Shown here piece by piece: positions 2,519-61,266 of a stretch of 64,000 nucleotides of DNA. Made by a program: the position numbers and the translations under genes. The first letter of the stretch is position 1. Every line of letters starts with the position of its first letter. A model generated the notes under the pieces. That model saw only the letters and a list, made by a program, of their open reading frames with translations. It ran no database searches and was not told where the DNA came from. Source of the stretch: Candidatus Omnitrophota bacterium (lineage in GTDB: Bacteria; Omnitrophota; Gorgyraeia; Gygaellales; JBFMHM01); assembly GCA_040753015.1 (NCBI GenBank), contig JBFMHM010000001.1, forward strand, positions 275,157-339,156, given 5' to 3'.

Positions 2519-5500
2519 TTTGATACCATAACTTCTTCTTTAGCCGTATCTTCTTTGTTTATTTCGTCTGTTGCTAAAGCCTTCGAAAGCTTTACTGAAA
2601 CAATCCTTGAAACACCCTGTTCCTGCATAGTAATTCCATACATAACATTGGCGTTTGCCATTGTTTTCTTGTTATGGGTAATAACGATAAATTGTGATTC
2701 TTTCGTAAATTCTTGAAGAACCCTTGAGAACCGATCAACATTTGCCTCATCTAAAGGAGCATCAATTTCATCTAACACGCAAAATGGCGAAGGCTTCACT
2801 TTAAATATCGCGAACATAAGCGCAGTTGCCGAAAGCGCCTTTTCTCCGCCCGAAAGAAGCAGAATATTTTGTAATTTCTTGCCTGGTGGACGGCAAATAA
2901 TTTCAATACCCGAATCTAAAGGATTATTCTCATCAATTAAGAATACGCTTGCATCTCCACCATTAAAAAGATACTTAAAATAATTTTTAAACTCTTCAGC
3001 TATTTTATCAAATGTCTCAACAAATATCTTTCTAGTTGTGCGATTAATTTTTGCTATAGCTTCTTGAATTGAATCTTTTGCTTTTACTAAATCATCCTGT
3101 TGAGCCAATAGGAACTCAAAACGTTTTTTCAATTCATCGAATTCTTCGATTGTAGAAATACTTGCACCTTCGTAACGTTGTAATTTTGATTTTAAATTAT
3201 TGATATTATCGCAAATCGAACTTTCATCGATATCCTCTGCCTGTTTCACATCTGAATTAATATTCTCCCTATAAAGCTGCTGCATCTTATCTAATAGGTT
3301 TAACTTTTGGAATTCGAATGTCTTTTGGCCCATCTCAACCTTATGTATATTATTTTTTAAATCTTCGATTTTTATAACTAACTTTTCTTTATCGGCTTGA
3401 GAGTTTCTAAAATCAATTTCTAGGCAATTAAATTCTTCTTTGATAATTATAAATCCTGAATCTATCTCCTGTTTTTGCGCTAAATTATTTTTAATCTTTA
3501 TTTCTAATTCTTGTATTAATCTATTAAAGTCTTCGAGTTTATTATTAGAATCGTTCTCCTCATTCGTATAACGGTTAAGACTTTCTATATCATTATTATA
3601 AGTAACTTCAAGCATGCTAAGCGCATCTTTTTGAGAATTTAATTTATCTTCAAGCCCGTCAAATTCAGTTTTGTCTTGGGTAATTGATATAAGCAATTCT
3701 TCTTTTGAATACAGCTTCTCTTGTAAAATAATCTGATAATCGCTAATTAATTTATTAGAATTTACTAAAGATTCATCCAGCTGTTTTAGTTTAATATTCG
3801 CATCGTTATTTCTTGTATTAAGGTTCTTCAATTCTTCGCTTAAATCTTCGATTTCAAAAGCAACAATCTCTCCTTCTTGTTTTAGTTTATTCAATTCAAG
3901 CTCTATGCCTTCAAGCCTTGTACTTAAATTCGCTACCTCTATACCTTGAGATTGAATATCTCTATCTAACTGCCTGATTTGTACTTGTTTTGCCTCAGTC
4001 AAACTTTTTTTATCTAAAATTAAGTTTTTTGTGTTATTTATAAAATTGGTTATTTCTTCAATTCTATTAGTAATCGATTCTGTTTCAAGGGGTATTGGCT
4101 TGGCATCACAATGAAGCAGATAATTAAAATTTTGGAAATCTTGTTTAACATTACCACTTAAATTCTCTGTATTATTTACACGCGCCAAAATCCCAGTAAT
4201 ACCGCTTGGTAAATCCTGTACTAAAATTACAGCGTTTAACTTCTGCTCTAGGCCTTCATATTCTGTTTTAAGTTTTTCGATAAATTCCCGCTGTGACTCC
4301 AATTTTATTTTTTGATTTTCTAAATCCTGGCAAGATTTATTTAAGGAGATGAGTTCATCGCTTAATTTTGTAAGCTCATCTTGCATGTTCTGCCTATCTG
4401 TGTTTAAAATATCAAACCGTGACTTAGACTGTGTTAATAATGAATTCAAATCATTGTAGCTCTGCTCAACAACTGCCTTTTCCTGATTAGTTTTTTCATT
4501 CTCAAGCTCGAGCCTTTTTTTACGTACATTTATATTCTGGATTCCGACATTAATTTCTATAATTGAATTTTTAAGCCTGCTTAATTCGGTAGTCAAATCT
4601 AAAATATTAGTTTTTTCCTGAATAATATTTTTTTCTGTCGATTTAATCACCTCTATCGTTTCTTTTAGTAAGCCTTCCTTTTTATTTATCTCTTCCTTAA
4701 GCAATAAAAATAAATTTTGAGTATGTTCAACTTGAGACTTATGCTCATCGACTTTTATCTGGCCATCTTTAATCCTAGTATCAAGCTCACTTTTTAGCTT
4801 CACCAGACTTTTTAACCTCACAGCTATTTCTTTAATTCTTTCTTTTGTAATATCCATATGTTGTAAATCGTTTTTGATACTATTTTCTAAAATCACTAAT
4901 TGATCTTTTGTCTGATTAATCTTGGCCTCTCCAAAAGATAACTTCTCTTTCTTATCTATTAAAGCTGCATCTAAAGCGGCTAATTCGTCCTGGCACAAAC
5001 TTAAAGTTTCGCTTTCTTTTGAATAATTTTTTGTTAAAAGTTCCAACTCTTTATTAATCTTTGCTATCTGAAAATTCGCAAGGCTTATTTCTGCCTGCTT
5101 TAATTCATCAAATATTTCCTTATAACGGCGGGCTTTGGTTGCCTGGCGCTCTAAAGAATCAATCTGGCGTTTTACCTCTAGAATTATATCGTTAATTCTA
5201 ACTAAATTTTGCTCTGTATCTTCTAATTTATTCAAAGCCTCTCTTTTCTGAGATTTATATTTAGTTATCCCGCTTGCTTCATCAAAAATCAAACGCCTAT
5301 CTTCAGGCCGCGAACTTAATATCAAATCCATCTTACCTTGTTCAACTAAAGAGTAGCTCTCGGCACCAATACCTGTGCCCATAAATAACTCTACGATATC
5401 TTTAAGGCGCACTAATGCTTTATTTATAAAATATTCGCTATCGCCTGAACGGTAGAGCCGCCGAGTAACTGTTACATCAGTTTCTTCAAGCGGCAAAATC

Positions 5501-5766
5501 TTCTTTTCATTAGAGAATGTAAGGTTTACTTCGGCAAATCCGACTGGTGGCCGTAAATCAGTTCCGCTAAAAATTACATCTTCCATTTTTGACCCACGCA
5601 TTGATTTAACAGACTGTTCACCTAACACCCAGCGGATACTATCAAATATATTTGATTTTCCGCATCCATTGGGCCCAACAACAGCAGTAATACCCGGTTC
5701 GAAATGAAGCGCGGTCTTTTCTGCAAAAGATTTAAAACCTAAAATTTCAAGTTTTTTTAAATACAT
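2515..5766 (-). CDS. smc: Chromosome segregation protein SMC
   Basis: 1083 aa. N-terminal Walker A GPNGCGKSN, long coiled coils and a C-terminal LSGGEKALSATAL signature. Confidence 0.9.
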   Translation of the reverse strand: MYLKKLEILGFKSFAEKTALHFEPGITAVVGPNGCGKSNIFDSIRWVLGEQSVKSMRGSKMEDVIFSGTDLRPPVGFAEVNLTFSNEKKILPLEETDVTVTRRLYRSGDSEYFINKALVRLKDIVELFMGTGIGAESYSLVEQGKMDLILSSRPEDRRLIFDEASGITKYKSQKREALNKLEDTEQNLVRINDIILEVKRQIDSLERQATKARRYKEIFDELKQAEISLANFQIAKINKELELLTKNYSKESETLSLCQDELAALDAALIDKKEKLSFGEAKINQTKDQLVILENSIKNDLQHMDITKERIKEIAVRLKSLVKLKSELDTRIKDGQIKVDEHKSQVEHTQNLFLLLKEEINKKEGLLKETIEVIKSTEKNIIQEKTNILDLTTELSRLKNSIIEINVGIQNINVRKKRLELENEKTNQEKAVVEQSYNDLNSLLTQSKSRFDILNTDRQNMQDELTKLSDELISLNKSCQDLENQKIKLESQREFIEKLKTEYEGLEQKLNAVILVQDLPSGITGILARVNNTENLSGNVKQDFQNFNYLLHCDAKPIPLETESITNRIEEITNFINNTKNLILDKKSLTEAKQVQIRQLDRDIQSQGIEVANLSTRLEGIELELNKLKQEGEIVAFEIEDLSEELKNLNTRNNDANIKLKQLDESLVNSNKLISDYQIILQEKLYSKEELLISITQDKTEFDGLEDKLNSQKDALSMLEVTYNNDIESLNRYTNEENDSNNKLEDFNRLIQELEIKIKNNLAQKQEIDSGFIIIKEEFNCLEIDFRNSQADKEKLVIKIEDLKNNIHKVEMGQKTFEFQKLNLLDKMQQLYRENINSDVKQAEDIDESSICDNINNLKSKLQRYEGASISTIEEFDELKKRFEFLLAQQDDLVKAKDSIQEAIAKINRTTRKIFVETFDKIAEEFKNYFKYLFNGGDASVFLIDENNPLDSGIEIICRPPGKKLQNILLLSGGEKALSATALMFAIFKVKPSPFCVLDEIDAPLDEANVDRFSRVLQEFTKESQFIVITHNKKTMANANVMYGITMQEQGVSRIVSVKLSKALATDEINKEDTAKEEVMVSN

Positions 5767-23976: not shown

Positions 23977-23982
23977 AATTCG

Positions 23983-24014
23983 TTCTCCAGTTCTTCAGTT
24001 CTTCGGTTCTCCAG
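23983..24014 (+). repeat. Left arm of the four-helix-bundle cassette: 4 tandem 8-mers GTTCNNCA
   Basis: GTTCTCCA GTTCTTCA GTTCTTCG GTTCTCCA. Overlaps the 3' end of the four-helix-bundle ORF. Confidence 0.8.
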
Positions 24015-24375
24015 CTATTTGAATATTAGAATTTCTGATTAAACCATTAATTAGCTTTGCCGTCTTATTACTTTGCTCATAAACATTATCAAACTCAATC
24101 CTAGATAACATATCACAATCTAAAACTACATATAAATGACTTTGAAGTTCTGAAATAGAACCTTTCGCCATTGTAAAAAACTGTTTGCTATCCTTAAAAG
24201 AATATCGTCCGAATCCTTCGCTTATGTTTGCCATAATAGAAACTGCGGCCCTTTGAATTTGATTTGCTAAACCAAAATCTTTAAAATCATTTTTTTTAGT
24301 AATATTATATATCATTTTAACTAATTTTCTTGCTTCCTGCCATGCAATCAAATCTTCAAATTTTTGAATTTTCAT
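23995..24375 (-). CDS. Four-helix-bundle protein (TIGR02436-type, '23S rRNA intervening-sequence protein' family)
   Basis: 126 aa. ...AWQEARKLVKMIYNITKK...QIQRAAVSIMANISEGFGR...SISELQSHL is the diagnostic motif set of this family. Confidence 0.8.
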   Translation of the reverse strand: MKIQKFEDLIAWQEARKLVKMIYNITKKNDFKDFGLANQIQRAAVSIMANISEGFGRYSFKDSKQFFTMAKGSISELQSHLYVVLDCDMLSRIEFDNVYEQSNKTAKLINGLIRNSNIQIAGEPKN

Positions 24376-24378
24376 AAC

Positions 24379-24410
24379 TGACGAACTGGCGAACTGGCGA
24401 ACTCAAGAAC
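24379..24410 (+). repeat. Right arm of the four-helix-bundle cassette: 4 tandem 8-mers TGNNGAAC, inverted relative to the left arm
   Basis: TGACGAAC TGGCGAAC TGGCGAAC TCAAGAAC. Overlaps the pgk stop codon. Confidence 0.8.
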
Positions 24411-25587
24411 GCTTTTCTGTTAATGCTTCCACTCCGGGGAGTTTTTTGCCTTCTAAAAACTCTAAGCTTGCTCCTCCGCCAGTTGAAATATGCGTCATTT
24501 TATCAGCTAATCCGAATTTGAGAATCGCTGCAGCCGTATCTCCACCGCCAATAATTGTTGTTGCACCTGTTTTTGAAATAAACTCTGCGATTTCCTTTGA
24601 GCCTTTCGCAAATTGTTCTATTTCAAATAACCCAAGAGGCCCATTCCAAACAATTGTTGCAGCATTTTTTAAAACAGCTTCGAAATTTTTTACTGTCTTT
24701 GGCCCAATGTCTAAGGCAATATCATCGTCACCAATTTTTTCAACTGTTCTTGCAATAGCTGCTGCGTCAACCTTATCGCTAACAATGTGATCAACTGGTA
24801 AGTGAATATTTACATTAACTTTCTTTGCGTCCTCTAATATTTTTTTGGCAATATCTACCTTATCAGCTTCAAGTTTTGATTTCCCAATATTTTGGCCTAG
24901 CGACTTTAAAAATGTGTAGCTCATCCCTCCGCCAATAATAATATCTGAGGCTTTATTTAAGAGATTGCCAATAATTGCAATTTTATCACTTACTTTTGCG
25001 CCACCTAAAATTACCATAAATGGTTTTTTAGGATTAGTTACTACGCTTCCTAAATATTTAATTTCTTTACCTAAAAGAAACCCCGCAACTGAAGGCAAAT
25101 AATGCGTTACGCCTTCGGTTGAAGCATGCGCACGATGAGCTGTTCCAAAAGCATCATTAACAAATATATCTGCCAGCGAAGCTAACTGCTTTGCAAATTC
25201 AGGATTATTCTCCTCTTCTTCAGCGTGAAACCGTAAATTTTCTAAAAGAATCACGCGCTCTTTCGAATTATTGATCTCTTTTTTAATTTCCTCGCCAATG
25301 CAATCTTTGAGCTGTAAGACTGGTTCTTTTAAAATTTCACTTAGCCTTTTTGAAACAGGCACTAAACGCGCTTTTTCTAAAACCTTCCCGTCTGGCCTGC
25401 CTAAGTGGCTCATTAAAATTATTTTTTTTGCTTTGCTCTCTTCAATATATTTTATCGTTGGAATTGACGCCTGAATTCTTGTATCATCCGTAATATTCAA
25501 ATTCGCATCCAGCGGTACATTAAAATCACATCTAACTAAGACTTTTTTTTCTTTTAAATCAATATCCCTAATTGTTAACTTATCCAT
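24403..25587 (-). CDS. pgk: Phosphoglycerate kinase
   Basis: 394 aa with PGK motifs (RCDFNVPLD, GGGASLEFLEGK). Confidence 0.95.
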   Translation of the reverse strand: MDKLTIRDIDLKEKKVLVRCDFNVPLDANLNITDDTRIQASIPTIKYIEESKAKKIILMSHLGRPDGKVLEKARLVPVSKRLSEILKEPVLQLKDCIGEEIKKEINNSKERVILLENLRFHAEEEENNPEFAKQLASLADIFVNDAFGTAHRAHASTEGVTHYLPSVAGFLLGKEIKYLGSVVTNPKKPFMVILGGAKVSDKIAIIGNLLNKASDIIIGGGMSYTFLKSLGQNIGKSKLEADKVDIAKKILEDAKKVNVNIHLPVDHIVSDKVDAAAIARTVEKIGDDDIALDIGPKTVKNFEAVLKNAATIVWNGPLGLFEIEQFAKGSKEIAEFISKTGATTIIGGGDTAAAILKFGLADKMTHISTGGGASLEFLEGKKLPGVEALTEKRS

Positions 25588-25627
25588 TAACTATCTGCTC
25601 CTTGTATTATTTTTTATACTTAAACTG
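25588..25627 (+). repeat. 40-bp direct repeat, copy 1 (contains the pgk RBS)
   Basis: taactatctgctccttgtattattttttatacttaaactg, identical to 27187-27226. Confidence 0.9.
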
Positions 25628-25628
25628 T

Positions 25629-25964
25629 TTATATTACTTCCGGTTTTGTTAAACGTTGTTCGTGATTATCAATAACGGTAGAGAGTTTTTTATAGGTTTC
25701 TTCTTGTTTAATCTTTACGCCATTTACTTGATGACTGATATCCATCACAGCCATTTTAACGCTATTAAGCTCAGATTCAATTCTAAGAAAACTTTTATCG
25801 TGTTCTTCTAATTTTCTAATAATAGAACTATGTTGTTCGCCAATCAATTTAATACCTTTATTCATTTCTTCCAGCAACACATTTGTTTCACGTTGAGAGT
25901 CATATTCAACAGAAGGTTTTTCAAGCTTGGTATTTTTTTTATTTTTCATTACTTCCTCCGACAA
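25629..25964 (-). CDS. Hypothetical coiled-coil protein (111 aa)
   Basis: ORF with charged, heptad-like composition. No recognisable family. Confidence 0.4.
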   Translation of the reverse strand: MSEEVMKNKKNTKLEKPSVEYDSQRETNVLLEEMNKGIKLIGEQHSSIIRKLEEHDKSFLRIESELNSVKMAVMDISHQVNGVKIKQEETYKKLSTVIDNHEQRLTKPEVI

Positions 25965-26146
25965 ATTAAATCACAATTTAATACAAATATATCAAAACAT
26001 AATTTTAGCTTTTTCATCAGCTTTTCCTTTGGCACAAAACGGAGAAACATTTAGTTACTCATAATTATAACATAAGAATTAAATCATAGTTGAAAATTTT
26101 ATCCGCATCAATCATTTTCTTCTTATTTTCTCAATAAACTTCCCTA

Positions 26147-26257
26147 TTACACTTTTACGGCCAAATCATTCTCTAAATATCCCTCCAATCTATACCTGTC
26201 TCTTTCATTTAAATGTTTGTATTTACTTTTTCTAGTGCTACAATTTAACTGCTCCAT
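26147..26257 (-). pseudogene. IS30-family transposase, N-terminal HTH fragment (remnant)
   Basis: MEQLNCSTRKSKYKHLNERDRYRLEGYLENDLAVKV*. K-x-K-H-L-x-x-E-R-x-x-I-E resembles the IS30 transposase HTH_38 N-terminus (KHLTLEERYQIE...). The ORF stops after 36 aa and no DDE domain follows. Confidence 0.45.
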
Positions 26258-26440
26258 ATGCTCTCCTGTTTTTTGTTGGTTTGCTTACTTACAAAATAAC
26301 AGGTTTTGTAATGCGCAAATGAAGGAAGCATGAAAGGAATGATATGTGAAGTTTGGGTTGCATTACGAGGGCCTCCTATTCGGCACACAGGGCGTCATAA
26401 AAGTTCGTTAACCTTAATTTATCTAATTCGGTAATTTTTT

Positions 26441-26587
26441 AAGTTTTATATGGTATTTGTTAATGGCTGCTTGGGCTTCTTCATGGATTTTTAATATAAA
26501 CTCTCGCGATGATAAATTTTTAGTTTCTTCGTAATGTTTTTCTCTAATTTCATGAATTTCCTGCATTGGTTTTGGTTCTTTGTGCAT
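26441..26587 (-). CDS. Small protein (49 aa) translationally coupled to the PIN gene (possible cognate antitoxin, atypical downstream position)
   Basis: MHKEPKPMQEIHEIREKHYEETKNLSSREFILKIHEEAQAAINKQIPYKT. Its ATG overlaps the PIN stop (TAATG). Below the 60-aa cutoff of the ORF table. Confidence 0.4.
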
Positions 26588-27057
26588 TAAATTACCTCCT
26601 CAGGTGAAACAACTTCGATAGGTTTGTATCCCAAAAGATTATTAACAGCAACAACTCCTATCTTTGTTTTTAGCTTTACCATATGTTGAAAATTCCAACT
26701 AACCACAACATCTAAATTATTTACAGACGCAATAGCTATGTGCAATGCATCGTCGCTATATTTAACGGGGAAAAGCTTTTCATCAACATATTTATCAGCA
26801 AGTTCCTTTGTTTGATCGTCAATAGGCAAAGCTTTGAGATTTAACTTACTAACTAAACTATGCAACAATTCAGCTTTTTCTTTTGGAGCACGATTAATTT
26901 CTGCAATAACTAATTCGGAAATATAACAATCAAATTTCTCTTGTTTTATCTGCTCAAGCAAATTTAAAGTTGCTGTTTTATGCACAGTTAATGATGGATC
27001 ATTAGTTAATGCAAAATTTAATACCGATGTATCTAAATACAGTTTAAATTTTTTCAT
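26587..27057 (-). CDS. PIN-domain ribonuclease (VapC-like toxin)
   Basis: 156 aa. N-terminal LYLDTSVL with acidic residues spaced as in a PIN domain. Confidence 0.65.
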   Translation of the reverse strand: MKKFKLYLDTSVLNFALTNDPSLTVHKTATLNLLEQIKQEKFDCYISELVIAEINRAPKEKAELLHSLVSKLNLKALPIDDQTKELADKYVDEKLFPVKYSDDALHIAIASVNNLDVVVSWNFQHMVKLKTKIGVVAVNNLLGYKPIEVVSPEEVI

Positions 27058-27186
27058 TAAAAATAATTATAACATAAAATAAAAAATAATGGGTAAAAAT
27101 TTTATGAAAAGCGAAAGTTAGAGATCATTTAATTTAAACATAACTCCTTGCAATAAAATAAGTTACGCAGAAACGACACCGGTTAC

Positions 27187-27226
27187 TAACTATCTGCTCC
27201 TTGTATTATTTTTTATACTTAAACTG
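27187..27226 (+). repeat. 40-bp direct repeat, copy 2
   Basis: Identical 40-mer. Overlaps the last 8 nt of ORF 27219-27794. Confidence 0.9.
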
Positions 27227-27794
27227 CTGATTGCACCGCGAAAAGCGCAACCCCTTGATTATTATTTTCGTTCAACTCTGAAATTACATCACTAGAATCA
27301 ATCATTACAGCAATATCATATTGGCCAGGAGGCAAACGGTCGGTTTCACCAAGAAAGAAATAAAATTCGTAAGCAAAACTTTGGCCTGGCCTTATCGGAT
27401 TCGCTGGAATATGGTTAGCATTAAATTCTCTTGCCGGAAACCCTGGTAAGCTCGCTCGTATTATATACGCACTTGCCACAGGCGCATTACCTCTATTGAC
27501 AACCCTAACTCCAAGTGGAAAACCTGCCATTCTATCCGTAACATTGCCTCTAACCCACGCTGATTCTACAGCTAGATCTGCTCTTAGATTTTGTTCTACG
27601 GATTGAACTGAAACTTGCTGTACCCTTCTTGGGTCTATAACTAACTTCTTATTCTGTTGTTTAGACATGTCCCTTAGTTGCTCTTTGGATCCAGCAAATA
27701 AGTTAATTGCAAAACAAATACTTATAACCACCGAAAACAACACTATCCTTTTATATATCGACATCTTTTCCTCCTTTATTTTTAATCTGCACAA
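27219..27794 (-). CDS. Secreted CARDB-like domain protein
   Basis: 191 aa. Signal anchor and C-terminal D..V.E.NE.NN motif (DVISELNENNNQG) typical of CARDB domains. Confidence 0.45.
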   Translation of the reverse strand: MCRLKIKEEKMSIYKRIVLFSVVISICFAINLFAGSKEQLRDMSKQQNKKLVIDPRRVQQVSVQSVEQNLRADLAVESAWVRGNVTDRMAGFPLGVRVVNRGNAPVASAYIIRASLPGFPAREFNANHIPANPIRPGQSFAYEFYFFLGETDRLPPGQYDIAVMIDSSDVISELNENNNQGVALFAVQSAV

Positions 27795-49486: not shown

Positions 49487-49545
49487 ACCTCCATTGCAAC
49501 CGCTAAAGCGCTAAATACGCTAAAGCGCTAAATATTATTAACAAC
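49487..49545 (+). promoter_or_regulatory. Conserved ~60-nt leader upstream of dnaK: RBS GGAGGTG, the inverted core TTGCAACCGC, and four TTTAGCG(C) units (two AGCGCT palindromes with centres 17 nt apart)
   Basis: Transcribed strand: TTGTTAATAATATTTAGCGCTTTAGCGTATTTAGCGCTTTAGCGGTTGCAATGGAGGTG. A near-identical block lies upstream of gene 55935-57488 (57489-57548). Confidence 0.7.
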
Positions 49546-49905
49546 TCTTTTTATTTCTAATCTTGGTTTTGCAAAATTTAATATCAAACCCAATTTCACA
49601 TCAACTGCTTTTAGATACGATATTGTTTGTGCCAAATGAATATCATTAATTTCTGAAACACATTTTAATTCCAAAATAATCAAATCTCCTATTAAAAAAT
49701 CTATCCTTTGAGAACCAATATATAATTCTTTATATTTAACTTGGATTTCTTTTTCTTTATTATGCCTAATGTTTAATTTATCAAATTCATAAGCTAAAGC
49801 TGTCTGATAAATCTTCTCTACGAAACCAGGACCTAAATGTTTATGAACTTCTATTGCGATGCCAATAACCTTATTTGATAATTCATCTAATTGTTGTTTA
49901 TCCAT
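49528..49905 (-). CDS. GxxExxY family protein (TIGR04256-type)
   Basis: 125 aa, MDKQQLDELSNKVIGIAIEVHKHLGPGFVEKIYQ... carries the GxxExxY motif. Inserted between grpE and dnaK. Confidence 0.75.
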   Translation of the reverse strand: MDKQQLDELSNKVIGIAIEVHKHLGPGFVEKIYQTALAYEFDKLNIRHNKEKEIQVKYKELYIGSQRIDFLIGDLIILELKCVSEINDIHLAQTISYLKAVDVKLGLILNFAKPRLEIKRVVNNI

Positions 49906-49906
49906 T

Positions 49907-49986
49907 TTGCGCTTTTGCTATTTTTGCTTCTTTGCGGTTGCAACTTTTTTGCGCTTTTGCTATTTTTGCTTCTTTGCGGTTGCAAC
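49907..49986 (+). repeat. Perfect tandem duplication of a 40-nt unit containing GCGGTTGCAAC
   Basis: tttgcgcttttgctatttttgcttctttgcggttgcaact x2. The first unit is the 5' leader of the GxxExxY gene; the second forms the last codons of grpE (VATAKKQK). Confidence 0.85.
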
Positions 49987-50523
49987 TTTGACCTTTGCCG
50001 TCCTAATTACACGGTCTTCTAATTTGTAGCCTTTTTGCAATTCTTCAATCACAACATTCTCTGGGAATTTATCTGTTTCTTCAACTAATAAAGCCTCATG
50101 CATACTCGGATCAAACTTTTTTCCCTTTGCCTCAATTGGCAAAAGCCCTTTCTTTTTTAATAATTCGTAAAGATGCGCTAAAATCATTTCTATCCCTTTT
50201 AAAAAAGTAGTAAAATCTTCTCTTTCTTCTTCCGCGGCTTCAACTGTACGCTCGAGATCATCTAAAATACCAAGTAATTCAACAATCAATCCTTCATTAG
50301 CAAACTTAATAAACAAATCTTGTTCTTTCTGCATCCTTTTTCTTACATTATCAAATTCTGCCTGTAACCTCAAATATTTATCCCAGCAATCTTTGGCTTT
50401 TTTAGCTTCTTCTCTTAATAAAATAAGCTCATCTTCATTAATCGAAATTAACTTTTTTTCATCTTGAGGATGCAAAATTTCCTCTTCTGGCTTATCTTCT
50501 TTTTTATTATTCATCAATTTCAC
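49960..50523 (-). CDS. grpE: Nucleotide exchange factor GrpE
   Basis: 187 aa, GrpE profile. C-terminal residues are encoded by the repeat (possible 3' alteration). Confidence 0.85.
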   Translation of the reverse strand: MKLMNNKKEDKPEEEILHPQDEKKLISINEDELILLREEAKKAKDCWDKYLRLQAEFDNVRKRMQKEQDLFIKFANEGLIVELLGILDDLERTVEAAEEEREDFTTFLKGIEMILAHLYELLKKKGLLPIEAKGKKFDPSMHEALLVEETDKFPENVVIEELQKGYKLEDRVIRTAKVKVATAKKQK

Positions 50524-54992: not shown

Positions 54993-55012
54993 TCTTTATC
55001 TACCTCCACTTA

Positions 55013-55031
55013 TCCAACCTAGGCGGTCGGA
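55013..55031 (+). repeat. Terminal inverted repeat (left) of the MNT-like module
   Basis: cctaggcggtcggatttag. Its partner at 55667-55683 is ctaatccgacctacgcc (reverse complement ggcgtaggtcggattag). Confidence 0.6.
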
Positions 55032-55042
55032 TTTAGTTATAT

Positions 55043-55507
55043 TTATCTAGATCGTTTATTTTTAAATTTTAATAAATAATCTACGTCAATCTTGTCTATC
55101 GGCCGATTAGAAATTTTCTTACTCTTTATTAATTCTCTAAACCCGATAATTATAATTTTTTGTCCGGCTATTTTAGAAGTTTTTCTGCCACGCCATATTT
55201 CTTTAAATTTACTTCCGCTTATCGAAGTTAAAAGATCAACTCTTACAGGTTCATACCCAAGTTGTATAATTGCTCCTTCTCTCTCAAAGTCTTCTGGTTT
55301 CAATTTTAGACTACTAAAACCAAACTCTCTAAGTGATTTTATGATTTTTTTACCATTTTCTAAATCAGGCTCAACTAATAAATCTATATCTTTACTATAT
55401 CTTGGTTTTGAATAAAACGCAACAGCATACGCCCCGACAACGCAATACCTAACTTTATTCTTATTGAATAACTTTAATAACTCTTTGAAGTCCTTTTCTA
55501 ATTCCAT
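55043..55507 (-). CDS. Minimal nucleotidyltransferase-fold protein (MNT/AbiEii-like)
   Basis: 154 aa. VRYCVVGAYAVAFYSKPRYSKDIDLLV is the GG..A...YG..R.T.DID nucleotidyltransferase pattern. Confidence 0.5.
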   Translation of the reverse strand: MELEKDFKELLKLFNKNKVRYCVVGAYAVAFYSKPRYSKDIDLLVEPDLENGKKIIKSLREFGFSSLKLKPEDFEREGAIIQLGYEPVRVDLLTSISGSKFKEIWRGRKTSKIAGQKIIIIGFRELIKSKKISNRPIDKIDVDYLLKFKNKRSR

Positions 55508-55652
55508 ATTTACCTTTAATTTTATAATAATCTTCTCTTAAGGATTGCATCAGCGCAAGTTTTTTTGCGCCAGACATAGCTAAATAAAATTTAATATCAG
55601 ACTCTTCTGCTTCTTTAAACGAATGCGCTATATTTACCCAAATCTTTTTCAT
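55461..55652 (-). CDS. Small partner protein (63 aa) overlapping the nucleotidyltransferase gene
   Basis: Overlaps 55043-55507 by 47 nt on the same strand. Likely the antitoxin-like partner. Confidence 0.35.
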   Translation of the reverse strand: MKKIWVNIAHSFKEAEESDIKFYLAMSGAKKLALMQSLREDYYKIKGKYGIRKGLQRVIKVIQ

Positions 55653-55715
55653 TTTCTCTTTTTCCTAATCCGACCTACGCCTTATCCCATTCTGTCAGAA
55701 TTGGAAGTCACAAAT

Positions 55716-55925
55716 TATGATCTCCAATTCTTAAACTCTTCCTTATTCAATCGAAACATAAAGTCTTCCGGAAACCGCTCAATATTACACTTCGTCGCTT
55801 GATTAAGCACTCTTGTAGATACTTCATATAGAATAGCTAAATCCCTGTCTAGCATAACTCTCTTGCCTCTAATTAATAAGATTTTATTCTCAATAATTTC
55901 TCGAGGTATAAATTCTTTAATTTTT
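55716..55925 (-). pseudogene. ORF6N-domain gene remnant (N-terminal ~65 codons, start codon lost, premature stop)
   Basis: ...[64 protein letters not shown] is homologous at DNA and protein level to the 5' third of the ORF6N genes at 57542-58075 and 59693-60220. Confidence 0.7.
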
Positions 55926-55934
55926 TATTAGTTT

Positions 55935-57488
55935 CTATTTTCGAGGCCTGACCCCGGTTTTGCTGACTTCTACTTTTAATGGTTCGACGTCAGCACGCAC
56001 AGCTTTTACTTCCCAATAGAATTTTTGATTTTGGTTTCCATCTTTTGTTGTAGCAACTTTAAACTTGCTATCTGCTATTTTACCATCTAGATAAATTAAT
56101 GATGCTCCGTCAATACAAGTTAATTGCAAAGTACGATTTTCTTTTCTGGTAAGTTTTTCAAAATATGCTGGTAATATAATTTCAACCTTACCGTCTTTTA
56201 ACTGCGCCTCTCCCCGATAGTAAACTGCAACCTCTGGTCCTTCAATGCAAGCATGAACTAAATCTTTATTTTGTGGGTTGAGTGGGTGATCAATTACAAA
56301 ATTTTTTACTCTTGCTGCAACAACCCCCGTAACATCAAAATTGCCTTTTATATAGACATTACCTGTAAAAACAGCAATATTATCACCGTAATCGGTGTCA
56401 CGTCCTACCATTAGTCTTGAACCATACAAGCCTTTTCCGCCAGTAAAATATCCTCCATAAGATTGATCACTACGAGTAAAACCTTCCACTCCCCGATATT
56501 GATCCGACCAACCATACACGCCACAAGAAGCAACGCCTTGAGCAGCACCAGCTACTCCATGTACATCATTATTTTCAAATAAAGCCGCCTGTCCAAACAC
56601 ACTTGCACTAAAGTTAAAAATCCGATTAGTATCACCTATTAAACCATACACAGCTGCATTTCTATTATGCACACCCGTCCAACTAACCCTCCCCATAACA
56701 CCATAAGCATGATTATCTCCCGCATCCACATATCCAAAAACTCCTGTTGGTCTATCTGAAAGACTATTCTCAGGAAAATCATCAGCAACATAGCCCATAA
56801 CACCCGATGGACTATCCGCATTAGAATGAGACAAGCCTAATACACCGTAAGTATTCCCGGCTATGGCAAGAGCCTCACCGTACAACCCTGCTGCTCCATC
56901 AAAAGTAGAAGAGGTAACACCATATACACCATAAGTAGGACCTTGCGTTGATTTTCCAAATACACCTGCTGAATATTGCCTAGCTGAATTTGTTTTACCC
57001 GCAACTCCATGTGCATAATGATTCCGACTATTATCTGGAAGAATCGTCTCGCCATATACACCGGCTGAAAACGACTCTTCATTAAAATCATTCTCGGGTA
57101 TCCACATACCACTATTAACCTGTCCATGCACACCATAGTACATAGTATCATTTCTTCCAACCAAACCCTGTCCTAATATTGCACTAGCATAATCCCTAGT
57201 ACGATTATATTGTGCATACAACGTAGTACCATAATCGGATCCCGCGCCTTCTGGTGGAGAATAAATACCACCTACTTGCAAAAGAGCTAAAAATCCCCCA
57301 CTCAAGAACTGCTCCTGCGCGCCTTCGCCAGTTGTACCTATCCACATCCTCTTTGCTTTTAGTTCGTTATATACGCCATAAGGCGCGGGGTAATAGGTTG
57401 AAAGCGTGATGGTTTCTTCTTGGGCGAAAGAATTAACACCACTAAACAACAAAAACACAAAAACTAATCTGAAAATTTTACTTTGCAT
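55935..57488 (-). CDS. Secreted glycine/tyrosine-rich repeat protein (517 aa)
   Basis: Signal peptide. ~14 irregular x-G-V-x-G-x repeats (SAGVYGE, AHGVAGK, TYGVYGV, TGVFGY...). Non-repetitive C-terminal ~120 aa. Confidence 0.6.
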   Translation of the reverse strand: MQSKIFRLVFVFLLFSGVNSFAQEETITLSTYYPAPYGVYNELKAKRMWIGTTGEGAQEQFLSGGFLALLQVGGIYSPPEGAGSDYGTTLYAQYNRTRDYASAILGQGLVGRNDTMYYGVHGQVNSGMWIPENDFNEESFSAGVYGETILPDNSRNHYAHGVAGKTNSARQYSAGVFGKSTQGPTYGVYGVTSSTFDGAAGLYGEALAIAGNTYGVLGLSHSNADSPSGVMGYVADDFPENSLSDRPTGVFGYVDAGDNHAYGVMGRVSWTGVHNRNAAVYGLIGDTNRIFNFSASVFGQAALFENNDVHGVAGAAQGVASCGVYGWSDQYRGVEGFTRSDQSYGGYFTGGKGLYGSRLMVGRDTDYGDNIAVFTGNVYIKGNFDVTGVVAARVKNFVIDHPLNPQNKDLVHACIEGPEVAVYYRGEAQLKDGKVEIILPAYFEKLTRKENRTLQLTCIDGASLIYLDGKIADSKFKVATTKDGNQNQKFYWEVKAVRADVEPLKVEVSKTGVRPRK

Positions 57489-57548
57489 TAAGCACCTCCA
57501 TTGCAGCCGCTAAAGCGCAAAATACGCTAAAGCGCTAAATTTTATTGA
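57489..57548 (+). promoter_or_regulatory. Second copy of the dnaK-type leader (RBS GGAGGTG, TTGCAGCCGC, 4x TTTAGCG-like units)
   Basis: Transcribed strand: TTGTCAATAAAATTTAGCGCTTTAGCGTATTTTGCGCTTTAGCGGCTGCAATGGAGGTG. Confidence 0.7.
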
Positions 57549-58075
57549 CAACCTTTTTTAATATCACGGTTTGGATGAAAACCAATTATTTTCTTTTCTT
57601 TAACCGTCGGCGGTTCAAACAAATTTCTAAGCGCATCAAAAACCATTTTAAAATGCGAGTCATATTTCTTTTCCATCGTTTCAATCTTACGCCTTAACGC
57701 TGTATAAGTCAACGCCATACGTTTAAAATTAACAAATGCGCGCATAATCTGTATATTTGCCATTACCGCACGCCTACTGCGTAAAACGCTTGAAAGCATA
57801 GCCACGCCTTGCTCGGTAAATGCATAAGGCAAATAACCACCTAAAACCTGTAGCGATGGTATCACATTTTGTGATACCATAATTTTAACTTCTGCATTTG
57901 TAATTCGAAACATAAAATCTTCGGGAAATCGCTCTCGATTCCTTTTTACTTGCTGCCTCAGCGCTATGGGCTTAACATCATAAAGAACCGCTAAATCTTT
58001 ATCTAACATTACCCTTTTGCCTCTAATCTGAAAAATCTTATTCTCAATCTGCTCAACTGATAACGATCTACTCAT
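57542..58075 (-). CDS. ORF6N-domain protein (KilA-C/anti-repressor-associated domain family), copy A
   Basis: 177 aa. [47 protein letters not shown] is the ORF6N signature. Confidence 0.7.
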   Translation of the reverse strand: MSRSLSVEQIENKIFQIRGKRVMLDKDLAVLYDVKPIALRQQVKRNRERFPEDFMFRITNAEVKIMVSQNVIPSLQVLGGYLPYAFTEQGVAMLSSVLRSRRAVMANIQIMRAFVNFKRMALTYTALRRKIETMEKKYDSHFKMVFDALRNLFEPPTVKEKKIIGFHPNRDIKKGCQ

Positions 58076-58078
58076 TTC

Positions 58079-58180
58079 TTAACTCCATTTTCCGAAATAA
58101 TTAACAGCACCAAAAAATAAAAACATAAAACCTAATCTAAAAATTTTATTTAATAAATCATCTAATTCTTTTTTATCCAT
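58079..58180 (-). pseudogene. Remnant of a GxxExxY gene 5' end fused to cassette sequence
   Basis: MDKKELDDLLNK... vs MDKQQLDELSNK of the intact GxxExxY gene, then divergent (IFRLGFMFLFFGAVNYFGKWS*). An identical copy lies at 60224-60325. Confidence 0.5.
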
Positions 58181-58208
58181 TTTTGCGTTTTTGCGGTTGC
58201 AACACTTC

Positions 58209-58250
58209 TTTGCGCCTTTGCGGTTGCAATCTTTTGCATCAAACACCTCC
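58209..58250 (+). repeat. 42-nt cassette-boundary repeat, copy 1 (-10-like TATATT nearby, RBS GGAGGTG, uORF MQKIATAKAQ...)
   Basis: tttgcgcctttgcggttgcaatcttttgcatcaaacacctcc, identical at 60354-60395 and 61136-61177. Confidence 0.85.
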
Positions 58251-58261
58251 ATAAAATAAAA

Positions 58262-58681
58262 TTAAAGTTTACAATATAAAACTATTTCTTCTAGGTATTT
58301 TTCAATATCGCTCAACTGATTTGTAAAAATATTAAAAACTTTATTCATATCTATTTTGGCATATTCATGAACGATAACATTGCGAAAACCTGCCATAGAA
58401 CACATAATTTCTAACATCTCTCGACTGATAACTTTTTTTTCATACAAAACATCAAACAAGCCTGAAAAACTCCCCGGTATCCCCCAATCATTATCGGAAA
58501 TAATATGGCTTGCAATATCGATACAACCTTGAATCGCATCCAATAAATTTATACGCACAATATCTTGAACATCTCTATTGTTTAAAAAATTACCTAAACT
58601 AATCCCTTGTTTTTCTTTGAGGCGAGATAAACTATCATTGATATTGGCAATTTTTGCTATAACAATATCACGCTTAACCAT
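58262..58681 (-). CDS. hepT: HepT-like HEPN toxin (DUF86)
   Basis: 139 aa with Rx4HxY motif (RNVIVHEY). Overlaps the upstream mntA by 8 nt. Confidence 0.75.
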   Translation of the reverse strand: MVKRDIVIAKIANINDSLSRLKEKQGISLGNFLNNRDVQDIVRINLLDAIQGCIDIASHIISDNDWGIPGSFSGLFDVLYEKKVISREMLEIMCSMAGFRNVIVHEYAKIDMNKVFNIFTNQLSDIEKYLEEIVLYCKL

Positions 58682-59105
58682 GTTTGCGCTCCTTAATCCT
58701 TCTTATTAACGCATCCTCCATATTTCTTCGTATAAAAAGAAAATCAAAGTATTCCAATACTGCGTACACTTTAAAATTGCGATTTGCCCCTTTATAAGAT
58801 TCGTAAACTTCTACGCCATTTTTTAATACCTGATATTTTAAAAAAGAATTTGCATTATTTAAAATTACAATATCAATATTCTTATCAAAAATCTTACTCA
58901 AATCATTCATTATAGACAGTTTTCTATCGCTATATTCCTGTATCGAGATATTCTCATTAAGAAAAACAGCAATATCAATATCGCTAAATTTATTTGTTTT
59001 ATTAGATGCTGCGGAACCAAACAAATAGGCAAACTTTATTTTTCGTTGAGCAGAAAAATATCCATTTAATTTTTCTTTAATATCGCTAATGGTTAAATTA
59101 TACAT
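58674..59105 (-). CDS. mntA: MntA-like nucleotidyltransferase antitoxin
   Basis: GSAASNKTNKFSDIDIAV is the GSx9-13DxD nucleotidyltransferase motif. Confidence 0.75.
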   Translation of the reverse strand: MYNLTISDIKEKLNGYFSAQRKIKFAYLFGSAASNKTNKFSDIDIAVFLNENISIQEYSDRKLSIMNDLSKIFDKNIDIVILNNANSFLKYQVLKNGVEVYESYKGANRNFKVYAVLEYFDFLFIRRNMEDALIRRIKERKHG

Positions 59106-59108
59106 ATT

Positions 59109-59492
59109 TCAGATTATACTATAAAATTCTTTTTCTTTCTCAGTCTTTGTTTTCGAAAGAATCAATAGATGATTCGTCCAACTTATTTGTGTCAGCAGTG
59201 CTGACACAAATTTTTTCTGATGATAAGCGTCATGAAACTGCCACATCCGGTATAGCCGTCGCCGATTAAAACCTTTAAATTCCGGATGTTTGCTTTGAAT
59301 ATAACAAGCCAGTTGATCTACTGCCGCATCACCCCACTCAGCAGTCTTAAGCTTATTACTTATATATCCACCAACATTCCAATATAATTTTACGAGTTCG
59401 GCATTAACGCTTTTAATAGCATTAAAACGAGCCTCATGAATCATCCTAACGACTTCGGAAAACTGATTATCAAGCCGTTTAACTATTTTCAT
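59109..59492 (-). pseudogene. DUF1016 (YhcG-like PDDEXK nuclease) N-terminal fragment, 127 aa of ~350
   Basis: LYWNVGGYISNKL...GDAAVDQLACYIQSKHPEFKGFNRRRLYRMWQFHDAY...LLTQISWTNHLLILSK...KEFY matches the DUF1016 N-terminal region. The nuclease domain is absent. Confidence 0.55.
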
Positions 59493-59529
59493 TTATCTTC
59501 CTGCCTACAATTTTATCTCTATCATTAAA

Positions 59530-59589
59530 GTAGGGGCGAAACCATGTTTTCGCCCCAATAATTTGGGCGATTACACGGAATCGCCCCTA
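59530..59589. repeat. Nested GC-rich palindromic element in AT-rich intergenic DNA
   Basis: GTAGGGGCGA...TCGCCCCTAC outer 10-bp inverted repeat enclosing hairpins GGGGCGAAAccatgTTTTCGCCCC and GGGCGAttacacggaaTCGCCC. Confidence 0.6.
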
Positions 59590-59692
59590 CGAACATTAAA
59601 AACATAAAAATTATTTTTAAAACATTTTTCTTTTGCATCAAACACCTAAAAATTTGCTCTGTAAATTTTTTATCCCGAAGCATACGAGAAAA

Positions 59693-60220
59693 TTATCCTT
59701 TTTTAATATCACGGTTTGGATGAAAACCAATTATTTTCTTTTCTTTAACCGTCGACGGTTCAAACAAATTTCTAAGCGCATCAAAAACCATTTTAAAATG
59801 CGAGTCATATTTCTTTTCCATCGTTTCAATCTTACGCCTTAACGCTGTATAAGTCAACGCCATACGTTTGAAATTAACAAATGCGCGCATAATTTGTATA
59901 TTTGCCATTACCGCACGCCTACTGCGTAAAACGCTTGAAAGCATAGCCACGCCTTGCTCGGTAAATGCATAAGGCAAATAACCACCTAAAACCTGTAGCG
60001 ATGGTATCACATTTTGTGATACCATAATTTTAACTTCTGCATTTGTAATTCGAAACATAAAATCTTCGGGAAATCGCTCTCGATTCCTTTTTACTTGCTG
60101 CCTCAGCGCTATGGGCTTAACATCATAAAGAACCGCTAAATCTTTATCTAACATTACCCTTTTGCCTCTAATCTGAAAAATCTTATTCTCAATCTGCTCA
60201 ACTGATAACGATCTACTCAT
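59693..60220 (-). CDS. ORF6N-domain protein, copy B (near-identical paralogue)
   Basis: 175 aa, differs from copy A by 1-2 residues (PPT->PST). Part of the ~700-bp duplicated block. Confidence 0.7.
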   Translation of the reverse strand: MSRSLSVEQIENKIFQIRGKRVMLDKDLAVLYDVKPIALRQQVKRNRERFPEDFMFRITNAEVKIMVSQNVIPSLQVLGGYLPYAFTEQGVAMLSSVLRSRRAVMANIQIMRAFVNFKRMALTYTALRRKIETMEKKYDSHFKMVFDALRNLFEPSTVKEKKIIGFHPNRDIKKG

Positions 60221-60353
60221 TTCTTAACTCCATTTTCCGAAATAATTAACAGCACCAAAAAATAAAAACATAAAACCTAATCTAAAAATTTTATTTAATA
60301 AATCATCTAATTCTTTTTTATCCATTTTTGCGTTTTTGCGGTTGCAACACTTC

Positions 60354-60395
60354 TTTGCGCCTTTGCGGTTGCAATCTTTTGCATCAAACACCTCC
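60354..60395 (+). repeat. 42-nt cassette-boundary repeat, copy 2
   Basis: Identical 42-mer. Confidence 0.85.
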
Positions 60396-60426
60396 AGTAT
60401 TTAAAAATTTACAATATAAAATTATT

Positions 60427-60756
60427 TTACAAATAAATGACCTTGCCTGTTCTCTTTATTTCAGAAAGAAAATCAAGTTTATTTTTCACATTGAATTCTT
60501 TTGATGTGTAACCTTTCGCTTCAATTGGCTTCATTATCCTTGCAGCTGCAATGCCAAGAACCTCAAGCCTTTCCCGTAAATTCATTTTTTTAAAATCATT
60601 CGATATAACAGCAACATCAATATCACTGTCTTTACGTTCTTTTCCTCTTACAAATGAACCATAAAGAATCACCTTTTCAATATTAATCCCTAATGTTTGC
60701 AACATCTCTTTATATTCACTTATATATTTTTTAATCTTATATCCTGCTTTAAACAT
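60427..60756 (-). CDS. MNT nucleotidyltransferase (HI0073-like)
   Basis: YGSFVRGKERKDSDIDVAVI motif. Confidence 0.75.
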   Translation of the reverse strand: MFKAGYKIKKYISEYKEMLQTLGINIEKVILYGSFVRGKERKDSDIDVAVISNDFKKMNLRERLEVLGIAAARIMKPIEAKGYTSKEFNVKNKLDFLSEIKRTGKVIYL

Positions 60757-61115
60757 TTTATTATCTCCATGGTTTTATCTAGATATTTTTTAGTAATATT
60801 TTTTGGATAATTAGATACAAGCCTCGATAAATCTTCTGGATATCTTGTTACCACTCCAGCATTATTAATTATGCCAACAAAATCTAATAAATCCGCAGAT
60901 AACTTAATTTTTCCAAGATCCAATAAATAAATTAGGTCATGCGTTTTCGGAGGAAGTTTATTTATCGCTTCAGAAACAATTGCCTTAAGAACTTTTTCAA
61001 TTGCCAAATGACACATAAAAATAACATAAACATACCGCCCCGTCTTAAACATTTGTTTAGCGGTTGTTAGATCATATTCCACCATATTTAGCCAATTTTT
61101 AGTCTCTTTATTCAT
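60720..61115 (-). CDS. HEPN-domain protein (HI0074-like), upstream partner of the MNT
   Basis: 131 aa HEPN fold with a C-terminal RYPEDL-type motif. Overlaps the MNT gene by 37 nt. Confidence 0.7.
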   Translation of the reverse strand: MNKETKNWLNMVEYDLTTAKQMFKTGRYVYVIFMCHLAIEKVLKAIVSEAINKLPPKTHDLIYLLDLGKIKLSADLLDFVGIINNAGVVTRYPEDLSRLVSNYPKNITKKYLDKTMEIIKCLKQDIRLKNI

Positions 61116-61135
61116 TTCGCGCTTTTATTTTTTAT

Positions 61136-61177
61136 TTTTGCGCCTTTGCGGTTGCAATCTTTTGCATCAAACACCTC
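61136..61177 (+). repeat. 42-nt cassette-boundary repeat, copy 3
   Basis: Identical 42-mer, here followed on the transcribed strand by uORF MQKIATAKAQK* and the HEPN gene. Confidence 0.85.
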
Positions 61178-61266
61178 CAATTTAGAATTGTTATATTATG
61201 TGGACGAGACAACCTTGCTCCTACTTAAATTAATAAATACATAAATTTTTTATATTATACCATAGT

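Follow-up and report, generated by a model that had tools for sequence, protein, structure and literature searches.

Introduction

Insertion with long target duplication has been described for restriction-modification genes (Nobusato et al. 2000, Gene 259:99; Furuta et al. 2010, PMC2853133). In the cases collected by Furuta, Abe and Kobayashi (2010, NAR 38:2428; PMC2853133), the inserted DNA lies between near-perfect direct repeats of 46–47 bp (H. influenzae and Thermus) or longer, which are unique in the genome. These authors retained repeats of more than 30 bp with high identity, an insert of less than 20 kb that is neither a prophage nor another large element, a single repeat copy at the empty site, no integrase or transposase responsible for the event, and a repeat unique in the genome (PMC2853133). 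Restriction-modification cargo was a criterion of their search, and not a mechanistic requirement. Here we analyse a 1.56-kb segment that is bounded by a perfect 40-bp direct repeat and located immediately upstream of the pgk gene in a Candidatus Omnitrophota bacterium (assembly GCA_040753015.1, contig JBFMHM010000001.1, proteins MEW5758158–165). The window, i.e. the whole stretch of DNA analysed, covers 64,000 nucleotides (positions 275,157 to 339,156 of the contig). The segment contains a PIN-domain gene coupled to a small partner gene, a coiled-coil gene and a fragment of an insertion sequence (IS) of the IS30 family.

The segment resembles the long-target-duplication cases in being a small block, of putative addiction type, flanked by repeats of more than 30 bp made of host sequence and covering a gene 3' end and a translation signal, with no transposase or integrase found so far that would be responsible, and tolerated inside an operon-like array. 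Its repeats (40/40 identical bases) and its length (1,559 bp) fall within the limits of Furuta et al. It differs by its cargo, a PIN toxin-antitoxin-like module with mobile debris in place of restriction-modification genes, and by its host, an uncultured member of the Omnitrophota.

Other described systems share some of these traits. With the IS30 family the segment has in common a transposase 5' untranslated region (UTR) and half of an HTH_38 domain, but what is present is an internal stump without a DDE domain and without inverted repeats at the 40-mers. Moreover, the duplication is 40 bp long, as against the usual 2–3 bp for the family and the long and variable 19–26 bp of IS1630, an IS30-family element of Mycoplasma fermentans (cited in PMC2853133). 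Being a short segment devoid of recombination genes and bounded by recombinable direct repeats, it also recalls cis-mobilisable elements (CIMEs) as they are generally understood, except that the window gives no evidence of a cognate integrase, of element-borne att arms or of related autonomous elements. Finally, the gene pair evokes VapBC: a PIN protein with conserved acidic residues, a coupled, small and conserved partner, and a patchy spread that looks like horizontal transfer. In the window, however, the PIN gene comes first and the partner downstream, whereas the VapBC antitoxin is usually encoded upstream and has a DNA-binding domain. The 54-residue partner could not be assigned to a known family of antitoxins or DNA-binding proteins, and neither NCBIfam nor PADLOC models matched it.

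Results

The 40-bp repeat is a complete gene junction

The initial annotation of this DNA had reported a perfect 40-bp direct repeat, with one copy in the ribosome-binding region of pgk and the other overlapping the stop codon of the gene at 27219–27794. Exact matching, shuffled sequences and inspection of the sequence and of the open reading frame (ORF) ends confirmed both statements. The repeats and the two host genes they adjoin are as follows.

24403–25587, minus strand: pgk, the host gene whose translation-initiation region is duplicated (Pfam PGK, E 1.4e-156; pgk-tpiA-secG synteny in relatives)
25588–25627, minus strand: direct-repeat copy L, downstream in gene direction (exact match; pgk identified by Pfam)
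27187–27226, minus strand: direct-repeat copy R, upstream in gene direction (exact match, sequence reading and ORF ends)
27219–27794, minus strand: gene for a secreted CARDB-domain protein, the upstream host gene (Pfam CARDB, 29.4 bits for a cut-off of 22.7)

The 40-mer, TAACTATCTGCTCCTTGTATTATTTTTTATACTTAAACTG, is present in exactly two copies with a period of 1,599 bp, and the copies are identical at 40 of 40 bases. A third copy was not found in the window, even when up to three mismatches were allowed, and no match arose in 100 dinucleotide-preserving shuffles of the window. Leaving aside the cassette regions at 49.9 kb and 57.5–61.2 kb described below, it is the only exact repeat of at least 25 bp in the 64 kb. 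Identity ends abruptly on both sides. On one flank two of the five adjoining bases differ, and on the other one copy is followed directly by the pgk ATG and the other by GTAACC.

Read in gene direction (minus strand), the unit is CAGTTTAAGTATAAAAAATAATACAAGGAGCAGATAGTTA. It is made of the 8-nt 3' end of the CARDB gene, including its TAA stop, and of a 32-nt spacer with the motif AAGGAG, and its 3' limit is the base immediately before the pgk ATG (25587). The repeat unit is a complete, tight, operon-type gene junction. If one 40-mer is removed together with the enclosed 1,559 bp, a canonical arrangement is obtained: stop codon, 32-nt spacer with Shine-Dalgarno site, ATG. In the present arrangement, copy R preserves the CARDB stop, and its AAGGAG, followed by GTAACCGG without a start codon, is an orphan Shine-Dalgarno site. 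Copy L, which begins 1 nt past the stop codon of the 106-codon gene described below, holds the working Shine-Dalgarno site of pgk, AAGGAG at 25598–25603, 10 nt 5' of the ATG.

On inspection, the 40-mer displayed neither internal dyad symmetry nor core-type inverted repeats, and it was absent from 2.9 million viral contigs. No terminal inverted repeats were found at the insert ends or adjoining the 40-mers. Sequences around CCGGT that match at 9/11 positions lie close to the two inner ends; they were considered as candidate transposon termini, and judged a chance match from their unequal distances to the 40-mers. A dif/Xer site was rejected for lack of a dyad; the GC skew, profiled over 8 kb (22–30 kb), is negative almost throughout and gives no hint of a terminus. 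An integron attC site or gene cassette was likewise rejected, for lack of a dyad and of any integrase found.

The enclosed DNA is a mosaic of accessory genes and remnants

The GC content of the 1,559-bp insert is 30.2%, as compared with a median of 34.6% for the window; among all stretches of 1,559 bp it ranks at the 2nd percentile. It contains four ORFs of at least 36 codons and a PIN gene stump, all of them accounted for below. All genes and stumps are oriented like pgk, and two extended -10 promoters lie among them.

25629–25949, minus strand: 106-codon coiled-coil gene (GGAGG 5' of the ATG at 25949)
25966–26102, minus strand: second, diverged remnant of a PIN module (DNA alignments)
26147–26306, minus strand: 5' end of an IS30-family element, comprising some 50 nt of 5' UTR and codons 1–36 (26147–26257) of the transposase gene (homologues, DNA alignment)
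26423–26587, minus strand: 54-codon partner gene, putative antitoxin (TAATG overlap with the PIN stop, i.e. translational coupling)
26587–27057, minus strand: intact PIN-domain gene of 156 codons, putative toxin (RNase) (Pfam PIN, 31.8 bits for a cut-off of 23.6)
27061–27105, minus strand: promoter region of the PIN module (sequence, 14-nt exact repeat)
27106–27186, minus strand: 81-nt segment at the inner edge of the insert (sequence reading)

Terminator prediction returned no site from the CARDB stop to the start of pgk. No restriction or modification domain was detected in the cargo. A Pfam scan of the 19 larger ORFs in the interval from 13.3 to 36.6 kb revealed neither a recombinase nor a transposase domain; five of these ORFs matched no Pfam family. 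The window is devoid of tRNA genes, and the GC-richer 165-nt spacer between the 54-codon and 36-codon ORFs yielded no tRNA, Rfam RNA or riboswitch. The PIN pair, the IS30 fragment and the low GC content support the view, already present in the initial annotation, that the enclosed DNA, a mosaic, has an accessory or mobile character. Some details of that annotation had to be revised. A stretch of 476 bp said to be free of long ORFs is in fact a 329-bp gap between the 36-codon ORF and the PIN gene, of which 165 bp are the 54-codon gene. The ORF downstream of PIN has 54 codons (26423–26587), not 49, and overlaps the PIN stop by TAATG. The coiled-coil ORF is real, and its length is most likely 106 codons, counted from the ATG at 25949, instead of 111.

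The IS30-family stump

Searched directly, the 36-residue ORF product matched nothing in Pfam or NCBIfam at E<=10, nor 72,556 plasmids by tblastn. A HMMER search of 1.84 billion representative proteins returned nine homologues at E<=1e-3, with values from 7e-8 to 9e-4, all of them aligned from their N-termini. The longer among them (P0260, P0264 and P0266) match Pfam HTH_38 with 38.9, 34.3 and 27.1 bits (cut-off 27), and P0264 also matches the N-terminal third of the 344-position PHROG transposase profile phrog_4646 (E 1e-22). In addition, the 50 nt or so located 5' of the ATG (AAAxCTGTTATTTTGTAAG...AAACCAACAAAAAACAGGAG) are nearly identical in the window and in the metagenome contigs L091 and L092, which are unrelated, as would be the case for the untranslated 5' region of an IS. 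The ORF has a strong ribosome-binding site and is cut off inside the HTH_38 domain; no further transposase sequence was found downstream in any of the three frames, and no DDE (rve) domain. The profile search through homologues carrying HTH_38 therefore bears out what had been proposed from the 36 residues alone, and the ORF is confirmed, at the level of sequence, as the 5' stump of an IS30-family transposase gene.

The left end of the IS was probably further upstream, at about 26380–26400. Contigs L091 (about 75–100) and L092 (about 190–215) share GTAGATTGTAATnnTAAGTGCGAAAG, about 125 nt 5' of the transposase ATG, and this motif resembles TGTAGATT..., the start of the IS30 left inverted repeat. 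At the aligned position of the window, about 26380–26400, the sequence has diverged, so that the left end is not defined there. The stump is internal, the PIN module being placed between it and the nearer 40-mer. This position and the lack of inverted repeats next to the 40-mers argue that the IS did not make the 40-bp repeat as its own target duplication, and we agree with the earlier remark that 40 bp is too long for an ordinary IS30 duplication.

A portable pair of PIN and partner genes

Across 15 sequences of the family, several acidic and polar positions of the PIN protein do not vary, D9, E53, D103 and N122 among them. Its 312 homologues are scattered over Omnitrophota, Brocadiales, Elusimicrobia, Zixibacteria, Firestonebacteria and other groups, with at most 68% identity once the entry of the source genome itself is set aside. 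Distant relatives (31–44% identity) were found on ten viral contigs. At the same spacing after PIN, an ORF of 56–59 codons is present in contigs L083 (Elusimicrobia), L085 and L086 (both Omnitrophota). Its products are 61–63% identical to the 54-residue protein, with 26 invariant columns, and the surrounding genes are unrelated. Between the window and L085, DNA similarity begins some 19 nt before the PIN ATG and ends inside the small ORF. These three independent contigs confirm the coupling of PIN with a small downstream ORF proposed in the initial annotation, and comparison of the sequences identifies the two as a genuine, portable and conserved gene pair. The conserved coupled pairing in unrelated contexts is the reason why we treat it as a putative toxin-antitoxin-like pair with a reversed gene order. 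The 54-residue protein had no Pfam, NCBIfam or PADLOC family match and no recognisable DNA-binding domain. PADLOC, PHROGs and PDB sequence searches with the PIN, 54-residue and 106-residue proteins were uninformative.

The promoter of the PIN module has an extended -10 element, TGTTATAAT (27066–27074), that ends 8 nt 5' of the PIN ATG. In L085 the layout is similar (3161–3181), with TGGTATAAT, then 9 nt, then the ATG. Neither PIN gene has a Shine-Dalgarno site. An extended -10 only 8–9 nt before an ATG that lacks a Shine-Dalgarno site suggests that the messengers of this PIN family are probably leaderless, or nearly so.

A remnant of a second PIN module, missed in the initial annotation, begins with a promoter copy (26061–26102) that is 81% identical to 27063–27105 and lies 44 nt past the 36-codon IS30 ORF. 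The 14-nt sequence TAATTATAACATAA is strictly conserved in both PIN promoters (27064–27077 and 26062–26075). About 17 PIN-like codons follow (25966–26017), 75% identical to the window PIN gene and 77% to that of L085; they encode MKKLKLCFDIFVLNCDLI, where the intact protein has MKKFKLYLDTSVLNFALT, and the frame continues for five codons to a stop, making 22 codons.

In L083 (JAJAPY010000023.1), directly 3' of the PIN module with its 59-codon partner, there is a 68-nt direct repeat (4745–4812 and 5525–5592, 97% identical) that contains TGCTATAAT and encloses a 780-bp segment with a 98-codon ORF on the opposite strand. It is possible that this small segment is a further insertion accompanied by a long duplication, here of a promoter region.

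The remaining parts of the insert

For the 106-residue coiled-coil protein, an NCBI entry of 106 residues is 100% identical over its full length. Sixteen other homologues share 40–58% identity, and those with a source name come from Omnitrophota; the two genomic contexts that were examined are unrelated to each other. At the opposite edge of the insert, the 81-nt segment contains an AAGGAG motif (27144–27149) and a 7-codon mini-ORF (27118–27141), which is possibly the decapitated start of a lost gene. Nothing similar to this segment was seen in the loci fetched or in the remainder of the window.

Host genes and their relatives

The likely true start of the CARDB gene is the ATG at 27764, preceded by an AAGGAGG site. 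This gene is the last of a co-directional, secretin-associated cluster, where its neighbours include a secretin gene and a weak match to T2SS-C, below the cut-off. Almost all long ORFs of the window are on the minus strand and, together with the negative GC skew over 22–30 kb, this orientation indicates a strong gene-strand bias.

Exact-protein look-ups of the pgk product, PIN, P0001 and the CARDB protein gave nothing on record. When genome contigs were scanned with pgk, the best identity among the matches listed was 67%, and the upstream genes were not conserved. A search with the pgk protein reached 84%, on a 1.1-kb contig lacking the pgk 5' end; the other matches, across one-genome-per-species and metagenome collections, were at most 71% identical and had different upstream genes. 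In relatives with 64–67% identity the order pgk-tpiA-secG is conserved, and the genes upstream of pgk differ. Among the 80 pgk loci that were retrieved, not one has an insert gene as a neighbour of pgk. A scan of metagenome contigs with the CARDB protein produced two weak matches only (30–40%).

The mate of pgk in its 90% cluster (P0268, on L103) turned out to be unrelated, eukaryote-like DNA without similarity to the window, and was rejected as a clustering artefact, which also explains why the pgk self-match is missing from the homology search. The representative of this cluster (P0267/P0268) is a 44-residue peptide from a Logan contig with an adapter-like beginning.

Other small cassettes in the window

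Between pgk and tpiA lies a gene for a four-helix-bundle protein of 126 residues (24375–23995, minus strand; Pfam 23S_rRNA_IVP, E 8e-33), without its own Shine-Dalgarno site. In five relatives (L001, L002, L003, L006 and L088) no gene separates pgk from tpiA, and from this comparison the pgk operon has been invaded at least twice in the lineage. The cassette (23977–24402) is bounded by inverted-complement arms with an 8-nt period: upstream, three copies of GTTCGCCA; downstream, GGAGAACC, two copies of GAAGAACT and GGAGAACG, an arm that provides the GGAG of tpiA. The minimum-free-energy and centroid structures predicted for the RNA agree in pairing the arms into a long stem that encloses the entire cassette (z = -2.7). 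Such a stem is reminiscent of 23S rRNA intervening sequences, with the difference that the cassette sits inside an mRNA operon.

A gene of the PD-(D/E)XK superfamily (PDDEXK_3; 49905–49528, minus strand) is placed between grpE and dnaK in a cassette of the same design (49487–49990). Its upstream arm is a 42-nt perfect tandem (two copies of GTTGCAACCGCAAAGAAGCAAAAATAGCAAAAGCGCAAAA), and its downstream arm, adjoining the GGAGGTG site of dnaK, is its inverted complement, in imperfect form, made of TTTAGCGC repeats followed by GGTTGCAA. Pairing of the two arms is predicted in the RNA fold with z = -4.2, and none of 100 shuffled sequences folded as well.

From 55000 to 61300 there is an array of cassettes of defence or toxin-antitoxin type, comprising an AbiEii-like nucleotidyltransferase (NTase), two ORF6N genes, HepT/MNT, DUF1016_N and HEPN/NTase. 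A block of about 700 bp is duplicated (57552–58251 and 59697–60396), the copies being identical save for short interruptions, and a perfect 43-nt arm, TGGAGGTGTTTGATGCAAAAGATTGCAACCGCAAAGGCGCAAA, is found at 58209, 60354 and 61137. The 43-nt repeats around the HEPN/NTase module (60–61 kb) were considered as a second target duplication, and appear instead to be the conserved 5' arm of a cassette family. The 3' flanks of ORF6N (57493–57560) and of the PDDEXK_3 cassette, located 8 kb apart, share 91% identity. Such identities between cassettes point to portable, shared arms that carry the ribosome-binding site of the next gene.

Discussion

The description of the repeat in the initial annotation is confirmed, and its interpretation is partly supported. 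We lean towards the view that the 1.56-kb segment is an insertion with long target duplication, which we hold to be somewhat more probable than its negation. The assignment to this class is made on a sharp-ended repeat consisting of host sequence only, on low-GC mobile debris, and on the fact that neither inverted repeats nor a recombinase or tRNA gene were found nearby. Because the repeat is host junction sequence over its whole length, a target duplication fits better than an attachment site carried by an element.

According to this scenario, about 1.56 kb of already degraded accessory DNA would have entered the 32-bp spacer of the CARDB-pgk junction, and 40 bp of host sequence would have been duplicated in the process. 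Such an outcome could follow from cuts in the two strands at sites some 40 bp from each other and subsequent fill-in, or from an equivalent template switch, and the duplication would not be the work of any enzyme encoded in the insert. Only a duplication of this kind would keep both flanking genes functional; the event presumably survived because it left the CARDB stop and the translation of pgk intact. Once in place, the PIN pair, if it acts as an addiction module, would put cells at a disadvantage if they lost the insert precisely, whether through recombination or through slippage between the 40-mers. The internal truncations would have arisen in the donor before transfer, or later in place. 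Since the unconstrained upstream copy is still perfectly identical, the event may be fairly young, although this is a weak indication: the 32 neutral sites bound divergence to less than about 9% at the 95% level.

Several points weigh against this explanation. No empty site was found among the pgk relatives retrieved (84% identity, or at most 71%), so that the polarity of the event, insertion as opposed to an ancient arrangement, rests on anatomy. The known cases carry restriction-modification genes and not PIN modules, no mechanism has been worked out for long target duplications, and the uniqueness of the 40-mer is established over the 64-kb window, part of a contig of at least 417 kb. The toxin and antitoxin roles of the pair are putative, the partner having no recognisable DNA-binding domain. 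Lastly, the interior of the insert, with its two truncations, looks old, yet the repeat is perfect. This is a weak tension, as 40 bp can stay perfect up to several percent divergence.

The initial annotation had proposed site-specific or homology-mediated integration, which is one candidate route among several. In its site-specific form, the 40-mers would be the attL and attR sites of a small non-autonomous element, or of the stump of an island that has lost its integrase, produced by recombination of an element-borne attP with an identical chromosomal attB, and the segment might still be excised in trans. Direct repeats of tens of bp over a gene 3' end are typical of tyrosine-integrase elements (discussed in PMC2853133), the interior is decayed enough for an integrase to have been lost, and recombination between the 40-bp identity blocks at both ends would restore the junction precisely. 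However, no integrase was found by the Pfam scan in the insert or in the larger neighbouring ORFs, neither a tRNA nor a tmRNA gene is the target, and no element-borne att site was found. The 40-mer lacks the symmetry and core-type inverted repeats of such sites as well as any occurrence in the viral contigs, and a lineage-specific host spacer with its Shine-Dalgarno site would not be expected on an incoming element unless that element had previously been excised from this very place. We regard this integration as unlikely, while giving it some weight. Copying errors during replication would need no element-encoded enzyme: a template switch, in which the junction was copied, then a 1.56-kb donor, then the 40-mer again, would yield the same repeat-insert-repeat product with sharp edges, and is consistent with finding neither recombinase genes nor terminal repeats. 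On present data its product is the same as that of the favoured insertion with long target duplication, of which it may be the mechanism. The related possibility of a single crossover with a circle bearing the 40-mer has to contend with a length of 40 bp, near the lower limit for RecA-dependent crossover. As a separate explanation, this pair of routes seems improbable.

A transposase could also have made the duplication, with later internal deletions removing most of the element. The genuine IS30-family 5' end inside the segment and the long variable duplications documented for IS1630 (cited in PMC2853133) speak for it, but the length exceeds the IS1630 range and the IS fragment is internal, its conserved 5' UTR starting only some 50–130 nt 5' of the ATG. 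In addition, no IS-type inverted repeats adjoin either 40-mer, and both IS ends would have to be deleted while the duplication stayed perfect. Elements of the IS1634/IS1549 type do make target duplications even longer than those of IS1630. Taken together, the transposase origin appears quite improbable. The source being a metagenome-assembled genome, with no independent assembly of the locus in the collections, one may also suspect a cycle in the assembly graph, by which DNA of another strain or replicon would have been spliced into the chromosome path through a shared 40-mer. The length of 40 is k-1 for k=41, a k-mer size of some assemblers. Against this, assemblers do not invent a shared 40-mer, and a second molecule with the host junction, e.g. 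an excised circle, would imply the same biology. The final k is usually larger than 40, so that reads must span each copy, and the orientation of the genes, their coupling and the lack of predicted terminators are coherent with an operon. We consider an artefact very improbable. Least credible of all is an ancient local duplication of the promoter and Shine-Dalgarno region with the intervening genes as long-standing residents: the orphan upstream Shine-Dalgarno copy, although unconstrained, is identical at all 40 positions, the intervening DNA is low in GC and contains truncated pieces of mobile elements, and no insert gene adjoins pgk in the fetched loci.

A broader proposal joins the 40-mers to the other cassettes of the window, and we advance it as a doubtful speculation taken as a whole. 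The 40-mers would be working recombination sites of a minimal non-autonomous cassette, in a genome whose tight operon junctions are systematically occupied by selfish cassettes of small size. These would either duplicate the downstream Shine-Dalgarno site, as the PIN module would have done with 40 bp, or bring one with them, as would the four-helix-bundle, PD-(D/E)XK, ORF6N and HEPN/NTase cassettes by means of simple-sequence arms, inverted in the two cassettes that were folded. By analogy with 23S rRNA intervening sequences, RNase III-type processing might possibly take place. If it were true, such an invader of operon junctions would represent a so far undescribed lifestyle. The stem-flanked cassettes elsewhere in the window are the more unusual material, and a more interesting lead than the 40-bp insertion.

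The practical impact of the putative insertion upstream of pgk is small, as the case stands alone, without replication, and its polarity is deduced from anatomy. If it were confirmed by an empty site, insertion with long target duplication would be extended to cargo of toxin-antitoxin type and to a deeply branching, uncultured phylum. It would mean that selfish modules can settle in an essential operon without breaking it, by way of a duplicated junction that holds the stop codon of one gene and the Shine-Dalgarno site of the next.

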